Of a DNA stretch of 64,000 nucleotides, positions 2,842 through 59,115 are shown in pieces (the stretch's first letter is position 1; every line of letters begins with the position of its first letter). The stretch is taken from contig JANNSK010000097.1 in NCBI GenBank assembly GCA_031402515.1, positions 7,429-71,428 of the forward strand, written 5' to 3'. This DNA comes from Alphaproteobacteria bacterium. GTDB lineage: Bacteria > Pseudomonadota > Alphaproteobacteria > Rickettsiales > UBA3002. The position numbers and the translations under genes were made by a program. The notes under the pieces are model-generated. The model had not been told where the DNA came from and did no database searches. It saw only the letters and a list, made by a program, of their open reading frames with translations.

Positions 2842-2916
2842 ATGGCATGTGACAAATGGCATGTGGCATGCGGTAAGATTCATCACGCGTGTCACCTGTC
2901 ACCTACCACTTGTCGC
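2842..2916. repeat. inverted heptamer-array hairpin, unit RTGRCAN
   Basis: atggcat gtgacaa atggcat gtggcat ... gtgtcac ctgtcac ctaccac ttgtcgc. It spans the tim44-like stop to the mltA signal peptide. Confidence 0.75.
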
Positions 2917-4060
2917 TCTTATCCTCCTCGCGGGCTGCGAAGAGCCCACCGTGCTGCTTCCCAAGAGCTACGCCGAAATACCGGGCTGGCATCAGGACCG
3001 GCAATCAGAGGCCTACCGCTTGTTTGTCGATTCCTGCAAAGCGAGCGAATCGCGTGTGTTACCGTACCAGACGCGACGTCATGAACCCATCGGCGACTTT
3101 GACCGATGGAGTGAAGTCTGCAGTGCGGCCTACGGGTTTCCCAACCCCACCGACGCGGAAGCCCGCACTTTCTTCGAGCAAAAATTTGAACCGTTTCAGG
3201 TGACGACCGAATCAAAACCGCTGGGCCAAATCACCGGCTATTACGAGCCGCTGCTCTATGGCTCCATGGTAAGGCAAGGCAAATTCCAAACCCCGGCTTA
3301 CGGCGTGCCGGACAACCTCACCCCCGGCATTCCTTACATGACGCGCGAGCAAATCGAATCGCGCGGGCTCGAAGGCCACGCCAAACCCCTGCTTTATGTG
3401 GATGACCCGGTGATGCTTTTCTTCCTGCATATCCAAGGTTCCGGCAAGGTGCGCCTGCCCGATGGCGCGCTCGTCACGCTGCAATATGCGGCGCAGAACG
3501 GCCATCCGTTTGTGCCCATCGGCAGGCTACTCAAGGAGTCGGGCGATCTTGAAGAAGCGTCGATGCAATCCATCCGCGACTGGCTGTATGCCAATCCCGA
3601 CCGCGCGCGGGACGTGATGAACCAGAACCCTTCGTATATTTTCTTCAAGCTGACTTCGGGCGAGCAGATGGCAAAAGGTGCAATGGGCTTGCCGCTCACT
3701 TCGCTGCGTTCGGCGGCGATCGACGATGACCGCGCCGCCTACGGCGTGCCCACCTATATCGCCACCGAGCATTTCGATTTCTTCACCCGCGATCATCAGA
3801 AACTCGAACAGCTGTTTGTATCGCAGGATACAGGCGGCGCGCTGCATGGGCCGAACCGCATCGATATGTTCTTCGGGCGCGGCGAGGAGGCCGAATGGGA
3901 AGCCGGCCACCAGAATACGCGCGCGCTGGTATACTGGCTGCTGCCGAAAGCGCCGTCACCTCAAGAGGTTTCTGCGGTCGAACCTTCCGCCACCGCAGCA
4001 GAAGATCCGCGCGCTGTGTTGCCCTCTGCCATCCCGGCGGATGTGCCGCCCGCCGAATGA
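2861..4060 (+). CDS. mltA: membrane-bound lytic murein transglycosylase A (lipoprotein)
   Basis: MltA-like body (GYYEP...YGVPD..., LHIQGSG.V.L.DG, FFG.G..A...AG) with lipobox LLAGC. The ATG at 2861 gives the signal peptide MWHAVRFITRVTCHLPLVALILLAGC. Confidence 0.85.
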   Translation: MWHAVRFITRVTCHLPLVALILLAGCEEPTVLLPKSYAEIPGWHQDRQSEAYRLFVDSCKASESRVLPYQTRRHEPIGDFDRWSEVCSAAYGFPNPTDAEARTFFEQKFEPFQVTTESKPLGQITGYYEPLLYGSMVRQGKFQTPAYGVPDNLTPGIPYMTREQIESRGLEGHAKPLLYVDDPVMLFFLHIQGSGKVRLPDGALVTLQYAAQNGHPFVPIGRLLKESGDLEEASMQSIRDWLYANPDRARDVMNQNPSYIFFKLTSGEQMAKGAMGLPLTSLRSAAIDDDRAAYGVPTYIATEHFDFFTRDHQKLEQLFVSQDTGGALHGPNRIDMFFGRGEEAEWEAGHQNTRALVYWLLPKAPSPQEVSAVEPSATAAEDPRAVLPSAIPADVPPAE

Positions 4061-4566
4061 AGCGCCGCGAACCGACGCCAGAAGAGCGGCGCTTATGGCG
4101 CGAAGTCACCCAGCGCGACAAAAAATCTATCCCGGAAGATTTTAACTCCCCCCTTGAGGGGGAGCCCTATCACTCTGGCGATTCGGTGGGGGGAAAGGCG
4201 GTGAAGTTAGCCCCCCACGGCGTTGCCAGGGCAACGCCCGCTCCCCCTCAAGGGGGGAGCAAAAAAGAAGTTTCCTCCCGCGAAGCCAAACAGCTTTTTA
4301 CAAAAATCGATGCCACGCTCGATTTGCATGGATTAACGCAGGATGAAGCCCATGAAAAATTGCTGCGATTCATCGCTGCCGCGCGTAAGTCAGGCAAGCG
4401 CCGCCTGCTCATTATTACCGGCAAAGGCAAGGGCATCCTGAAAAAATCATTACCGCTCTGGCTGGACTCGCCGAAACTGGCGGGCCAGATAGGCTCCATC
4501 GCCAGCGCCGGCCCAGAAAAAGGAGGCGAGGGGGCGCTCTATGTGTTACTAAAAAAACCCAAATGA
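4057..4566 (+). CDS. Smr/MutS2-like domain protein
   Basis: C-terminal Smr domain (LDLHGLTQDEAHEKLLRFI...GKRRLLIITGKGKG). The ATG at 4057 overlaps the mltA stop (ATGA). The central linker carries a GC-rich repeat. Confidence 0.8.
   Translation: MKRREPTPEERRLWREVTQRDKKSIPEDFNSPLEGEPYHSGDSVGGKAVKLAPHGVARATPAPPQGGSKKEVSSREAKQLFTKIDATLDLHGLTQDEAHEKLLRFIAAARKSGKRRLLIITGKGKGILKKSLPLWLDSPKLAGQIGSIASAGPEKGGEGALYVLLKKPK
4146..4260. repeat. GC-rich palindromic repeat (CCCCTTGAGGGGGAG-type modules) inside the smr-domain gene
   Basis: ctccccccttgagggggag ... gctccccctcaaggggggagc, read in frame as SPLEGEP...APPQGGS. Confidence 0.75.
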
Positions 4567-5270
4567 GCCAAGAAAGCACAGTTCCCGAAACCCATATCCT
4601 TGTCGTTGATGACGATGACCGGCTGCGGGCGCTGCTCAAACAATATCTAAGCGAGAGCGGCTATTTTGTTTCAACCGCCGCCAACACGGCGGAGGCGGAA
4701 GAAATTTTACGCGCGTTCGCCGTCGACCTCATGGTGCTCGATGTGATGATGCCCAAGGAAACCGGGCTCGATTTTGCCGCGCGCCTGCGCGACCGCGACC
4801 GCGTGCCGCCCATCCTGTTGCTCACCGCGCGTGGCGAGGCGGAGGACCGCATTGAAGGGCTTGAAACGGGTGCGGCCGATTACCTCACCAAGCCCTTCAC
4901 CCCGCGCGAACTGGTGTTGCGCATGGAGAACATCCTGCAACGTACGGCTGCGGCCAATCTCGGCCAACGCGTATTGACATTCGGCCCCTACCGCTTCGAG
5001 CTTGCCAGCGGCCGTCTGGTGGGCGACGGCACGCATATTTACCTGACATCGAGCGAAATGGATTGTTTGCGCATCCTCGCCGCCCGCGCGGGCACACCGG
5101 TCAGCCGGGAGAAAATCGCCGAGTTATCGGGCGATGTATCCAACGAGCGCTCAGTCGATGTGCAAATCAACCGTCTGCGCAAGAAAATCGAACCCAATCC
5201 CGGTAAGCCGATTTATATCCAGACCGTACGCCACGCGGGCTATGTACTCCATGCCGGGGTGGTGGCGTGA
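4563..5270 (+). CDS. OmpR/PhoB-family response regulator
   Basis: REC domain (ILVVDDDDRLR...DLMVLDVMMP...KPF) followed by a winged-helix domain (RLRKKIE...IQTVRHAGY). Confidence 0.9.
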   Translation: MSQESTVPETHILVVDDDDRLRALLKQYLSESGYFVSTAANTAEAEEILRAFAVDLMVLDVMMPKETGLDFAARLRDRDRVPPILLLTARGEAEDRIEGLETGAADYLTKPFTPRELVLRMENILQRTAAANLGQRVLTFGPYRFELASGRLVGDGTHIYLTSSEMDCLRILAARAGTPVSREKIAELSGDVSNERSVDVQINRLRKKIEPNPGKPIYIQTVRHAGYVLHAGVVA

Positions 5271-58788: not shown

Positions 58789-58911
58789 GTGGGTCTCCAT
58801 CCTAAGTTTTACCAGTCCCCCTACGCTAAAGCTTCGGGCGACACTCCTTCGCTCTAACGGTTTCAGGTGTCTGACTGGCGTCAGCCACCCGAAGCCCGTA
58901 AGGGCGAAGGG

Positions 58912-58988
58912 TGGCGCACCCGATTGGAGTCGAACCAACAACCTTTGCCTTCGGAGGGCAACACTCTATCCAGTTGAGCTACGGGTGC
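58912..58988 (-). tRNA. tRNA-Arg (anticodon CCG)
   Basis: 77 nt folded by hand: acceptor GCACCCG/CGGGTGC, D-arm GCTC..GAGT, anticodon stem TTGCC/GGCAA with loop CTCCGAA, T-arm GTTGG-TTCGACT-CCAAT, discriminator G, encoded CCA. Confidence 0.9.
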
Positions 58989-59038
58989 GCGCGAGGAGCG
59001 TCATACAGGGCCACGGGGGGCTTGGCCAAGTTTTTTCA

Positions 59039-59115
59039 ACCAGCCAACAGCCAACAGCTTATAGCCGGGCTGAGCCACTTGCACGGCGGAGCTATAGGCT
59101 GTAGGCTCAAGGCCC
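59039..59115. repeat. inverted heptamer-array hairpin, unit GCCAACA/GCTGTAG
   Basis: accagccaacagccaacagcttatagcc ... ggagctataggctgtaggctcaaggcc. It ends at the ATG of pilin-like paralogue 2. Confidence 0.85.

Follow-up and report, generated by a model that had tools for sequence, protein, structure and literature searches.

Inverted pairs of heptanucleotide arrays in the operon spacers and coding linkers of an uncultured alphaproteobacterium

Heptanucleotides are the most abundant class of long simple sequence repeats (SSRs) in many bacteria, and polymerase slippage has been proposed as their origin, according to the account of Mrazek 2007 given in PMC4679880. In Xanthomonas, GGGAATC arrays form convergent inverted pairs, 70-75 per genome, of unknown function (Rehm et al. 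2015, PMC4692102), and the arrays of Nostoc have the unit GGGGA(C/T)T (PMC4692102). Direct repeats of TAACTGA are found in marine Beggiatoaceae, cyanobacteria and Bacteroidetes, and the Beggiatoaceae hold 169 direct sets and one inverted set (PMC4679880). We analysed a stretch of 64,000 nucleotides (the window) from contig JANNSK010000097.1 of the alphaproteobacterial assembly GCA_031402515.1, in which 16 loci carry tandem arrays of 7-nt units, most of them paired with an inverted array of the same unit to form a hairpin.

Because inverted heptamer pairs are already described in Xanthomonas, the repeats of the window are not a new class. An earlier sequence-only reading of this DNA had not recognised a described repeat class, a statement that does not stand, since both heptanucleotide SSRs and the inverted GGGAATC pairs were in the literature (PMC4692102; PMC4679880). 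What is new with respect to that literature is the presence of several families per genome, the dominance of the hairpin form, the fixed polarity, the turnover of families at orthologous sites, the rewritten coding linkers and the occurrence in phage contigs. We tentatively favour the explanation that these are heptanucleotide SSR arrays, of the type named short tandemly repeated repetitive (STRR) sequences or long SSRs (LSSRs), that may have become, and may have been kept, palindromic through slippage and template switching at the DNA level.

Tandem Repeats Finder detected 23 period-7 arrays in the window (2.1-6.3 copies each) compared with 1.48 per dinucleotide shuffle, an excess of about 15-fold, so that the enrichment over shuffled controls expected from the sequence-only reading was borne out. 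Other periods were near the shuffle expectation and none was enriched comparably. As further controls we used 80 loci of 3-21 kb (1.37 Mb) from distant alphaproteobacteria (GuaA at most 69% identical), fetched for another purpose, and these gave 1.4 period-7 arrays per 64 kb. An independent array scanner, with a threshold of at least 12/14 self-matches and a partner defined as the same unit within 260 nt, found 17 arrays in the window, 13 of which had an inverted partner and none a direct one; the same scan of the controls gave six arrays and no partners. Paired arrays of period 5, 6, 8, 9 or 10 were absent from the window, and a scan at a looser threshold added no locus to the 16, all of which were present where they had been proposed or a few bases off. 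The observation is confirmed as real and highly non-random.

That the window is a metagenome-assembled contig would allow for an assembly artefact, and the arrays might also have arisen by chance. However, the excess over shuffles and the absence of pairs from the controls argue against both, the arms are shorter than sequencing reads, and orthologous hairpins were found in independent ENA and NCBI assemblies, which refutes an artefact. We regard chance or artefact as hardly credible.

The loci are listed below as h1 to h16, as inverted repeats with no strand assigned. RNAfold z-scores (z) ranged from -4.6 to -14 at ten loci and were weak, above -4 on at least one strand, at 2842, 9091, 44437, 51594, 53896 and 59039.

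h1, 2842-2914: TGGCATG/TGACAAA-type 5' arm 2842-2870, TGTCACC-type 3' arm 2889-2914, loop 18 nt; weak, z -1.4/-2.8; begins right after the TAG stop (2839-2841) of a Tim44-like gene and extends into the mltA signal-peptide coding region (ATG 2861).
h2, 9090-9165: AGCCTAG/AGCCTGT arm 9090-9111, GCTGTAG/GCTGTTG arm 9143-9165, loop 31 nt; occupies the whole minus-strand spacer from the ybjN stop to the proC start.
h3, 10086-10185: GCTAGTK arm 10086-10116, complement 10159-10185; z -10; occupies the divergent spacer between the BMFP start (10086) and an epimerase start (10189).
h4, 11185-11265: GTTGTTG arm 11185-11212, CCAACAA arm 11236-11265; z -6; runs from 3 nt past the epimerase stop to the last base before the lgt ATG (11266).
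h5, 14131-14359: GAGAGTC arm 14131-14153, GACTCTC arm 14332-14359, around a nested palindromic element; begins right after the stop of a Cu-oxidase_4 gene.
h6, 20772-20797: solo GACTCTC array of 3.3 copies, 15 nt upstream of the prs ATG, with a palindrome resembling a MITE (a miniature transposable element with inverted repeats) just upstream.
h7, 21742-21815: GGGATTR arm 21742-21778, CCCWAATC-type arm 21784-21815, loop 5 nt; z -4.6; the 5' arm overlaps the prs TGA stop, and a promoter-like TTGACA..TATAGA and then the L25 gene follow.
h8, 24377-24468: AGGTTYC arm 24377-24407, GRAACCY arm 24429-24468, 90% complementary; z -7; runs from 1 nt past the ychF stop to 4 nt ahead of the next ATG (24473).
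h9, 29510-29571: AGCCTAC arm 29510-29541, GCTGTMG arm 29547-29571, loop 5 nt; z -8; occupies the minus-strand spacer from the ahpC stop to the trxB start.
h10, 36551-36738: GTGGCAG arm 36551-36582, CTGCCAC arm 36707-36738, 31/32 complementary (97%); z -8 to -10; inside carA (35968-37158, minus strand), with a 124-nt loop of conserved CarA coding sequence.
h11, 38067-38153: AGCCYAC arm 38067-38097, GCTGTWG arm 38130-38153; z -6.5/-7; runs from the stop of a polyhydroxybutyrate (PHB) depolymerase gene to the start of the next minus-strand gene.
h12, 44431-44517: AGCCGAC/AGCCTGT arm 44431-44461, GCTGTAG arm 44488-44517; z about -4; in the tadB-tadC spacer, minus strand.
h13, 51594-51652: GTGRCAG arm 51594-51628, short CTGCCAC arm 51636-51652; z -2.7/-4.6; located between the divergent genes rcpC and guaA, 46 nt upstream of the guaA ATG.
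h14, 53894-53959: GGAATCA array 53894-53927 of 4.6 copies, degenerate partner 53944-53959; weak, z -2.0/-0.6; begins at the GTG after a TPR-gene stop, with the partner in the bamB signal-peptide coding region.
h15, 55262-55332: GTGACAG/GTGGCAG arm 55262-55294, TGTCACC arm 55305-55332, 93% complementary; z -6 to -7; runs from 3 nt past the bamB stop to 4 nt ahead of the der ATG (55337).
h16, 59040-59112: CAGCCAA arm 59040-59066, GCTATAG/GCTGTAG arm 59088-59112; between tRNA-Arg (58912-58988, minus strand) and a pilin-like gene (ATG 59116).

The single architecture proposed for these loci, period 7 with self-complementarity in several different unit sequences, held throughout. Stems of the hairpins were 20-33 bp and the typical copy number per array was near 4. 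Loops were said to span 3-40 nt with one of 128 nt; they measured 5-42 nt, with 124 nt at 36551-36738 and 178 nt at 14131-14359. At 53896 the array itself is present, but the proposed second arm is rudimentary and lies in the 5' coding region of bamB. The array at 20772 is a solo arm, as had been described, with no inverted partner within 260 nt. In h3 an irregular 6-nt unit is mirrored in both arms, which are 24/24 complementary. The loops of hairpins of the same family share no similarity.

Thirteen of the 16 loci lie in spacers. Among the 32 spacers of at least 50 nt, 12 hold a hairpin and a thirteenth, between a Na/H exchanger gene and prs, holds the solo array. In nine spacers (ybjN-proC, BMFP/epimerase, epimerase-lgt, ychF-next gene, ahpC-trxB, PHB depolymerase-next gene, bamB-der, tRNA-Arg/pilin and Tim44-mltA) the feet of the stem are 0-4 nt from the flanking genes, so that the spacer is essentially the hairpin alone; seven of the nine run from an upstream stop to a downstream start codon. 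Eleven paired loci are between co-directional genes, three are in divergent spacers or beside a tRNA gene and none is in a convergent spacer. The arrays at two loci extend into the signal-peptide coding regions of mltA and bamB. The arms of h10 each encode 11 residues, in two variable linkers of CarA, and its loop encodes a conserved CarA segment.

We considered and rejected intrinsic terminators. No T-tail or U-tract follows any heptamer hairpin, and convergent spacers hold ordinary terminators with a GC stem and T-run (7646-7671; 25025-25005). In a terminator scan no call coincided with a heptamer stem, and two weak calls only overlapped the edges of h9 and h14. The Rfam search at gathering score returned only tRNA, SorX and two whalefall-1 matches, with none on the heptamer arms. 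The SorX small RNA match (24999-25084, minus strand) scored 47.3 bits, barely above the gathering score of 46.6; it has the canonical terminator at 25025-25005 and sits in a 469-nt convergent spacer downstream of the gene after h8.

The position of the stems raises the alternative that they are cis-regulatory RNA hairpins under selection, acting either in translational coupling, where the ribosome would melt the stem and free a start codon lacking a Shine-Dalgarno sequence, or as RNase III or mRNA-stabilising sites. The feet close to stop and start codons in nine spacers fit this proposal, and stems of 20-33 bp fall within the length of RNase III substrates. A Shine-Dalgarno interaction of -6 kcal or stronger was found for one of 14 genes downstream of hairpins compared with 14 of 40 others (one-sided p = 0.067), a difference in the expected direction that is only suggestive and too weak for an argument. 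A comparable role has been suggested for the TAACTGA repeats that lie upstream of start codons (PMC4679880). However, the hairpins are also present in divergent promoter spacers, beside a tRNA gene and within the coding sequences of carA, carB and der, in which translating ribosomes would open them, and a function in RNA would account for neither the periodicity nor the limited set of units.

The mismatches in the stems bear on the same alternative. Pairing selected in mRNA predicts that G·U is tolerated on the sense strand and A·C purged. Across 562 stem positions in 23 hairpins with a known sense strand we counted 20 G·U, 19 A·C and 25 other mismatches, and the sense strand folded better than the antisense strand in five of 12 cases. 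There is no sign of selection at the RNA level: the symmetry of G·U and A·C is as predicted by a DNA-level process or by neutral decay. The sequence-only reading had left two options, a generating mechanism or selection on RNA or DNA structure with compensatory change. Selection on RNA structure found no support, as there was no G·U excess on the sense strand, no energy preference between sense and antisense, and decay of orthologous copies. A generating mechanism, namely slippage with fold-back or template switching, fits best because the mismatches are strand-symmetric, the irregular unit of h3 is mirrored and the ratio of inverted to direct partners is 13:0.

We compared the window with syntenic loci from seven related bins (L081, L082/L115, L089, L090, L091, L092 and L114). 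Relatives at about 70-80% protein identity share the architecture, unevenly across the clade. Several period-7 hairpins or arrays each were present in L089, L090, L091, L092 and L115; no period-7 arrays were found in L083-L086, and three relatives recovered through the BamB alignment were without arrays. A scan of metagenome contigs with Der alone found no relatives. As a separate observation, toxin-antitoxin pairs (ccdAB, hicAB-like and Gp49/HTH_37) occur at varying points of the syntenic ychF-carAB region in the relatives (L089 4108-4657; L091 1918-3186 and 18829-19498; L115 8556-9111) and are absent from the window.

Arrays of the relatives are often intragenic, in carA, carB and der. Several hairpins were located in the carB genes of L115, L090 and L091. 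The interdomain linker of Der carries an in-frame GGGGAWT/AWTCCCC hairpin in L081 (10486-10624) and L082 (10484-10612); it is translated as GxGxWGxGIG ... PIPxPxSP, a similar insert is found in a 65%-identical Der (P0009), and the der of the window is without it. The window, L089, L090 and L091 have the carA hairpin at the same pair of sites. Since the four carA hairpins could be aligned by MAFFT in more than one register, we compared the consensus units of the arms instead. The unit pair is GGTGGCA/TGCCACC in the window and AGTGGCC/GGCCACT in L091, which amounts to a both-sided change in every unit, and in L089 and L090 the two arms have become uniform for different variants, and their pairing has decayed. 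At carA site B the unit is CTGCCAC in the window, CTCGACT in L092 and CCCCAAT in L115. The carA of L114, whose CarA is the closest (80%), has no arrays and its linkers are nearly equal in length, which indicates that the arrays replace sequence rather than simply insert.

The CarA proteins of the related bins, 375-450 amino acids long, have at least three further in-frame insertion hot spots (alignment columns 80-130, 245-290 and 368-402). Peptides at these inserts include NHESRITNHE and SSVIRDSS from GAATCAC arrays, PLPSGERLGEG from a CCTCTCCC palindrome, and an LLRSARND-type element. The CarA of P0187 back-translates to GGATTCG/CGAATCC arrays.

Orthologous spacers also differ. In the ahpC-trxB spacer the window has an AGCCTAC hairpin (h9) and L115 one of GGGATTA/CCCCAAT. 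Between bamB and der the hairpin of the window is almost perfectly paired; that of L081 is decayed, of GTGGTAG type and still of period 7, L082 retains only a homologous loop, and the spacer of L084 and L085, 31 nt long, has no hairpin. Recurrence at the same spacers with different sequences, together with the both-sided unit changes in carA, would fit selected RNA hairpins. However, orthologous copies are decayed or absent in relatives, where the spacers are only 3-40 nt, and solo and non-complementary arrays occupy the same sites. Taken with the lack of a G·U over A·C bias and of a sense-strand energy advantage, these observations leave us considering selected RNA hairpins distinctly unlikely.

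By clustering, the approximately eight consensus units of the window group into about five to six families, each of them met repeatedly here and among the relatives, apart from singletons: a GTGRCAG-like family, GAGAGTC/GAGAATC, AGCCTAC/AGCCAAC (which differs from CCAACAA by one substitution), GGGGATT and GAATCAG. The earlier count of at least eight unrelated units was overstated, as these recurring families are fewer and some lie one substitution apart. The dominant families differ by genome, each genome having its own. Polarity is fixed by family: all GTGRCAG, GAGAGTC and GGGGATT hairpins have the G-rich arm 5', and the five AGCCTAC hairpins of the window all have the C-rich arm 5'. Overall the G-richer arm was 5' in 37 of 46 hairpins scored, with exceptions clustering by family. 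Since an inverted repeat is identical on both strands, this polarity cannot reflect the direction of transcription or replication. For families to recur within and between genomes at fixed polarity, units must in some way be copied from locus to locus.

Exact 21-mers of three families were found in 5, 6 and 10 IMG/VR contigs, where a rough estimate of the number expected by chance is well under one. In several of these contigs, including a bona fide phage with Mu-F, capsid and cement genes, nearly all gene spacers are packed with heptamer arrays, the units being many, and about 30% of the arrays are inverted pairs. The array-rich contigs classified as phage or virus (L111, which is IMG/VR 3300032053_007016, L113, L109, L108 and L094) have 59-66% G+C and units in common with the window; L111 alone has 15 heptamer arrays in 10 kb. 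A tblastn search with the L111 capsid identified no host. Three other IMG/VR contigs (L099, L105 and L107, 40-43% G+C) carry long direct arrays, for example 12 x GTAGGCT and 17 x GGAGGCA-type, which resemble cyanobacterial STRRs and include the AGCCTAC/GTAGGCT unit of the window. A BLAST search of (AGCCTAC)7 against plasmids gave no match, probably through low-complexity masking.

These results would fit arrays that are family-specific mobile elements, non-autonomous, either similar to repetitive extragenic palindromic (REP) elements and REPINs or of a new kind, and copied by a structure- or sequence-specific enzyme encoded elsewhere in the genome or in phages, with insertion preferentially straight after stop codons and into permissive linkers. 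Such elements would explain families that recur at non-orthologous sites within and between genomes, including the irregular end units common to h5 and L089 (..GAGTCGAGTGAA / TTCACTCGAC..), as well as the genome-specific dominant families, the different families at orthologous sites, the uniform polarity within a family and the matches in phage. The position hugging stop codons is also like that of REP elements (PMC3733652). However, the loops are unrelated between copies and one of them is native coding sequence, the arrays replace sequence instead of adding to it, and target-site duplications are not visible. No Y1/HUH transposase, REP-associated tyrosine transposase (RAYT) or other transposase was found among the 54 window genes or in the gene tables of the relatives' loci, and the arms are not palindromic REPs with an unpaired tag. 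We regard mobile elements of this kind as rather unlikely.

Heptanucleotide LSSRs, such as those of Xanthomonas, Burkholderia and others, and cyanobacterial STRRs (Mazel et al. 1990 and Mrazek et al. 2007, as summarised in PMC4679880 and PMC4692102) resemble the arrays of the window in their tandem 7-nt units, with at least about three head-to-tail copies and only a few per array, in the several mainly non-coding units per genome, mostly intergenic, and in their over-representation relative to composition, with period 7 favoured. The GGGATTR/CCCCAAT family here is the Nostoc GGGGA(C/T)T unit. Three families here are probably one substitution away from the STRR1-3 units, CCCCAGT, TTGGTCA and CAACAGT. 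The present arrays differ from the STRR/LSSR arrays in their alphaproteobacterial host, in that about three quarters are inverted-paired into hairpins of 20-33 bp, in their additional presence in coding linkers at orthologous sites, and in their family-specific polarity.

The Xanthomonas pairs are likewise two close convergent heptamer arrays of about four units each, near the ends of open reading frames (ORFs), that could form stem-loops or cruciforms, and they occupy intergenic positions common to related species with varying length and sequence. There, however, one G-rich unit is present and is read as a G-quadruplex former, whereas the window and its relatives have at least five to six families, mostly without G-runs, different families at orthologous sites and arrays within genes. 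The arrays could in principle be iterated binding sites of a protein that recognises DNA or RNA, or non-B DNA (G-quadruplex or i-motif, as proposed for GGGAATC). The regular 7-nt spacing and the copy number near 4 are as in Xanthomonas (PMC4692102), and the GGGATTR family (h7, der of L081 and L082, and the L115 spacer) could form G-quadruplexes. However, h7 is the only G-run locus of the window and the other 15 have no G3 tracts; AGCCTAC, GAGAGTC, GTTGTTG, GCTAGTK and GGAATCA are without G-runs, several unrelated units would need several proteins, and some arrays lie within coding regions and are translated. We consider binding sites or non-B DNA very unlikely.

TAACTGA repeats are similar in that heptamer arrays of 2-6 copies end a few nucleotides upstream of start codons, in spacers without canonical ribosome-binding sites, with a patchy distribution across phyla and some copies within ORFs. 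They differ in that the Beggiatoaceae have one unit, nearly always direct, whereas here inverted pairs dominate and units are many.

REP elements are defined by an imperfect palindrome of 20-40 bp, an unpaired GTAG or CGTC tag and a RAYT transposase (PMC3733652). Like the heptamer arrays, REP, REPIN and bacterial interspersed mosaic elements are short palindromic DNA in operon spacers just past stop codons, with inverted pairs forming larger hairpins, a genome-specific consensus and some copies within genes (PMC3733652). The arms described here, however, are direct tandem arrays of period 7 without internal self-complementarity, and the loops are unconserved, one being native coding sequence. 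The sequence-only reading had pointed to the GTAG tetranucleotide as a possible link to REP and RAYT; GTAG occurs only in the AGCCTAC family, once per unit and within the paired stem, and not as an unpaired end tag. Membership of REP/RAYT was rejected: the arms lack a palindromic structure, neither a GTAG nor a CGTC tag stands unpaired, and no RAYT was found in the sequence searched. The same reading had expected that the loci would not collapse into one REPIN or MITE sequence family, and this was upheld by the unrelated loops within families and the native carA sequence in one loop. A MITE was likewise rejected, since same-family loops are dissimilar, the loop of h10 is carA and no target duplications were present at the feet.

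Rickettsia palindromic elements are reportedly selfish in-frame palindromes of 100-150 bp in protein-coding genes, with a conserved consensus and inserted whole (Ogata et al. 2000 is said to have described them). They share with the present arrays that in-frame palindromic repeats are tolerated in alphaproteobacterial housekeeping genes and translated as an extra or replaced peptide. In the window and its relatives, by contrast, two arms flank native sequence and are periodic arrays of several families. This candidate was rejected because the carA and der copies are two separate arms around native sequence and their units differ between genomes. Contingency loci for phase variation were rejected because the genes are housekeeping genes. 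CRISPR-like arrays were also considered and rejected.

The tentatively preferred explanation, slippage and template switching, would operate in several steps. A 7-nt unit would grow to about 3-5 copies by replication slippage; a preference for period 7 has been documented across bacteria. A nearby inverted copy might then be written if the nascent strand undergoes intramolecular template switching, of fold-back or quasipalindrome type, and template switching could later re-homogenise both arms. Template switching is known to homogenise and extend the arms of inverted repeats and to rewrite codons, by changes of several nucleotides, without selection (PMC8604942), and quasipalindrome-associated mutagenesis is described as making imperfect inverted repeats complementary (PMC7202029; PMC13100816). 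It differs from the present case in having been described for isolated short inverted repeats and not for tandem heptamer arrays or genome-wide generation of repeats. An extra copying step, suggested by the genome-specific dominance of families and by their polarity and needed as well for the recurrent families and for the non-complementary arrays at paired sites, would spread unit families between loci in a genome; ectopic templated repair, or a mobile-element enzyme encoded outside the window, is a candidate. The products would persist where DNA is unconstrained, in the stop-start gaps of operons, the n-regions of signal peptides and the interdomain linkers of CarA, CarB and Der. The process would act on DNA and not on RNA. 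Once transcribed, the hairpins must nevertheless fold into stems of 20-33 bp that cover the start region downstream; any consequences for mRNA processing or for translational coupling would likely be by-products.

Writing of inverted copies in this way would explain why arms overwrite what was there with little change in length and why the loops are native. Slippage with template switching would also account for the inverted-only orientation, the mirrored unit of h3, the strand-symmetric mismatches, the occurrence in every transcriptional context and the decay where the process lapses. Several results weigh against this explanation. Local slippage and template switching fails to explain the same families at unrelated loci and in genomes diverged by about 30% in protein sequence, and it leaves unexplained the genome-specific dominant families, the different families at one orthologous site (ahpC-trxB and carA site B), the uniform polarity within a family and the period of 7. 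In L115 the two carA sites hold arrays that are not complementary to each other, which means that arrays can be installed without a partner. No slippage or template-switch event was directly observed, relatives above 80% protein identity being absent from the databases searched.

The element nested in h5 had been described as one of about 160 bp, and it exists:

nested element in h5, 14158-14316, no strand assigned: two inverted Rfam whalefall-1 matches, at 14158-14213 (minus strand, 41.8 bits) and 14260-14316 (plus strand, 39.1 bits), gathering score 37.

The element is a MITE-like palindrome of its own, outside the heptamer system. That the nested copy matches as two inverted motifs suggests whalefall-1 to be one half of a mobile element, palindromic in structure, in this clade. 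Similar MITE-like palindromes are found in the window at 4140-4265, about 20590-20715 and 25330-25428, in L091 at 15300-15520 and in L083 upstream of der. Together with the nested copy they make up a second palindrome family, unrelated to the heptamers and dispersed in spacers, with cores CCTCTCCC..GGGAGAGG and flanks TTTCGAC/GTCAAAA. In L115, the tadB-tadC spacer (790-1080), which is the site of h12 in the window, holds a very stable MITE-like palindrome of about 270 nt (-156 kcal/mol). Across genomes, the same operon spacers gather different palindromic DNA.

The window has 52-59% G+C and encodes approximately 55 housekeeping genes in tight operons, including coaE, secB, mltA, proC, lgt, uvrC, prs, L25-pth-ychF, ahpC-trxB, greA, carAB, uvrB, a Tad pilus cluster, guaA, bamB, der and nrd. 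No species representative has a GuaA more than 69% identical to the one encoded here. The Der and CarA proteins are recorded from a single NCBI contig of 78 kb, and their nearest relatives are proteins of 74-80% identity from metagenome bins labelled Alphaproteobacteria, Rickettsiales or Rhodospirillales; the protein database contained no relative above about 80% identity for CarA and Der. On this basis the host is an uncultured alphaproteobacterium without a close sequenced relative. Two further features of the window were recorded. Between greA and carB, both strands of a 729-nt stretch (31874-32602) contain long ORFs, such as the plus-strand ORF 31863-32606, and no Pfam match was obtained there. 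Period-21 tandem repeats, equal in length to three heptads, occur at 22537-22592 in the C-terminal tail of L25/Ctc and at 59595-59634 in a pilin-like gene.

The function and origin of bacterial heptanucleotide repeats have been open since 1990, and published work has treated one unit at a time. The lineage described here is more informative, with several families per genome, mostly in hairpin form, and with orthologous sites in relatives where the array is present, decayed, missing or replaced by one of another family. In the essential proteins CarA, CarB and Der, linkers can be rewritten by the repeats. Arm complementarity is maintained without a sign of RNA-level selection, which makes a mutational, DNA-templated origin testable, and compensatory changes in such stems need not indicate a functional RNA. 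Stems of 20-33 bp between operon genes, at times over start codons, affect gene calling, models of operon expression and the annotation of small ORFs and N-terminal extensions in these metagenome-assembled genomes. A further possibility, which we hold to be doubtful, is a distinct repeat-writing process common to distant bacteria and phages, in which a few heptamers would be copied between loci at fixed polarity (G-rich arm 5'), overwriting whatever DNA is unconstrained, even codons in essential genes, at sites that coincide across genera, and would be turned over family by family. If true, this would amount to a class of repeat system not seen before, selfish or templated, maybe with a dedicated enzyme or template or with phage-borne spread, and not ordinary microsatellite slippage.

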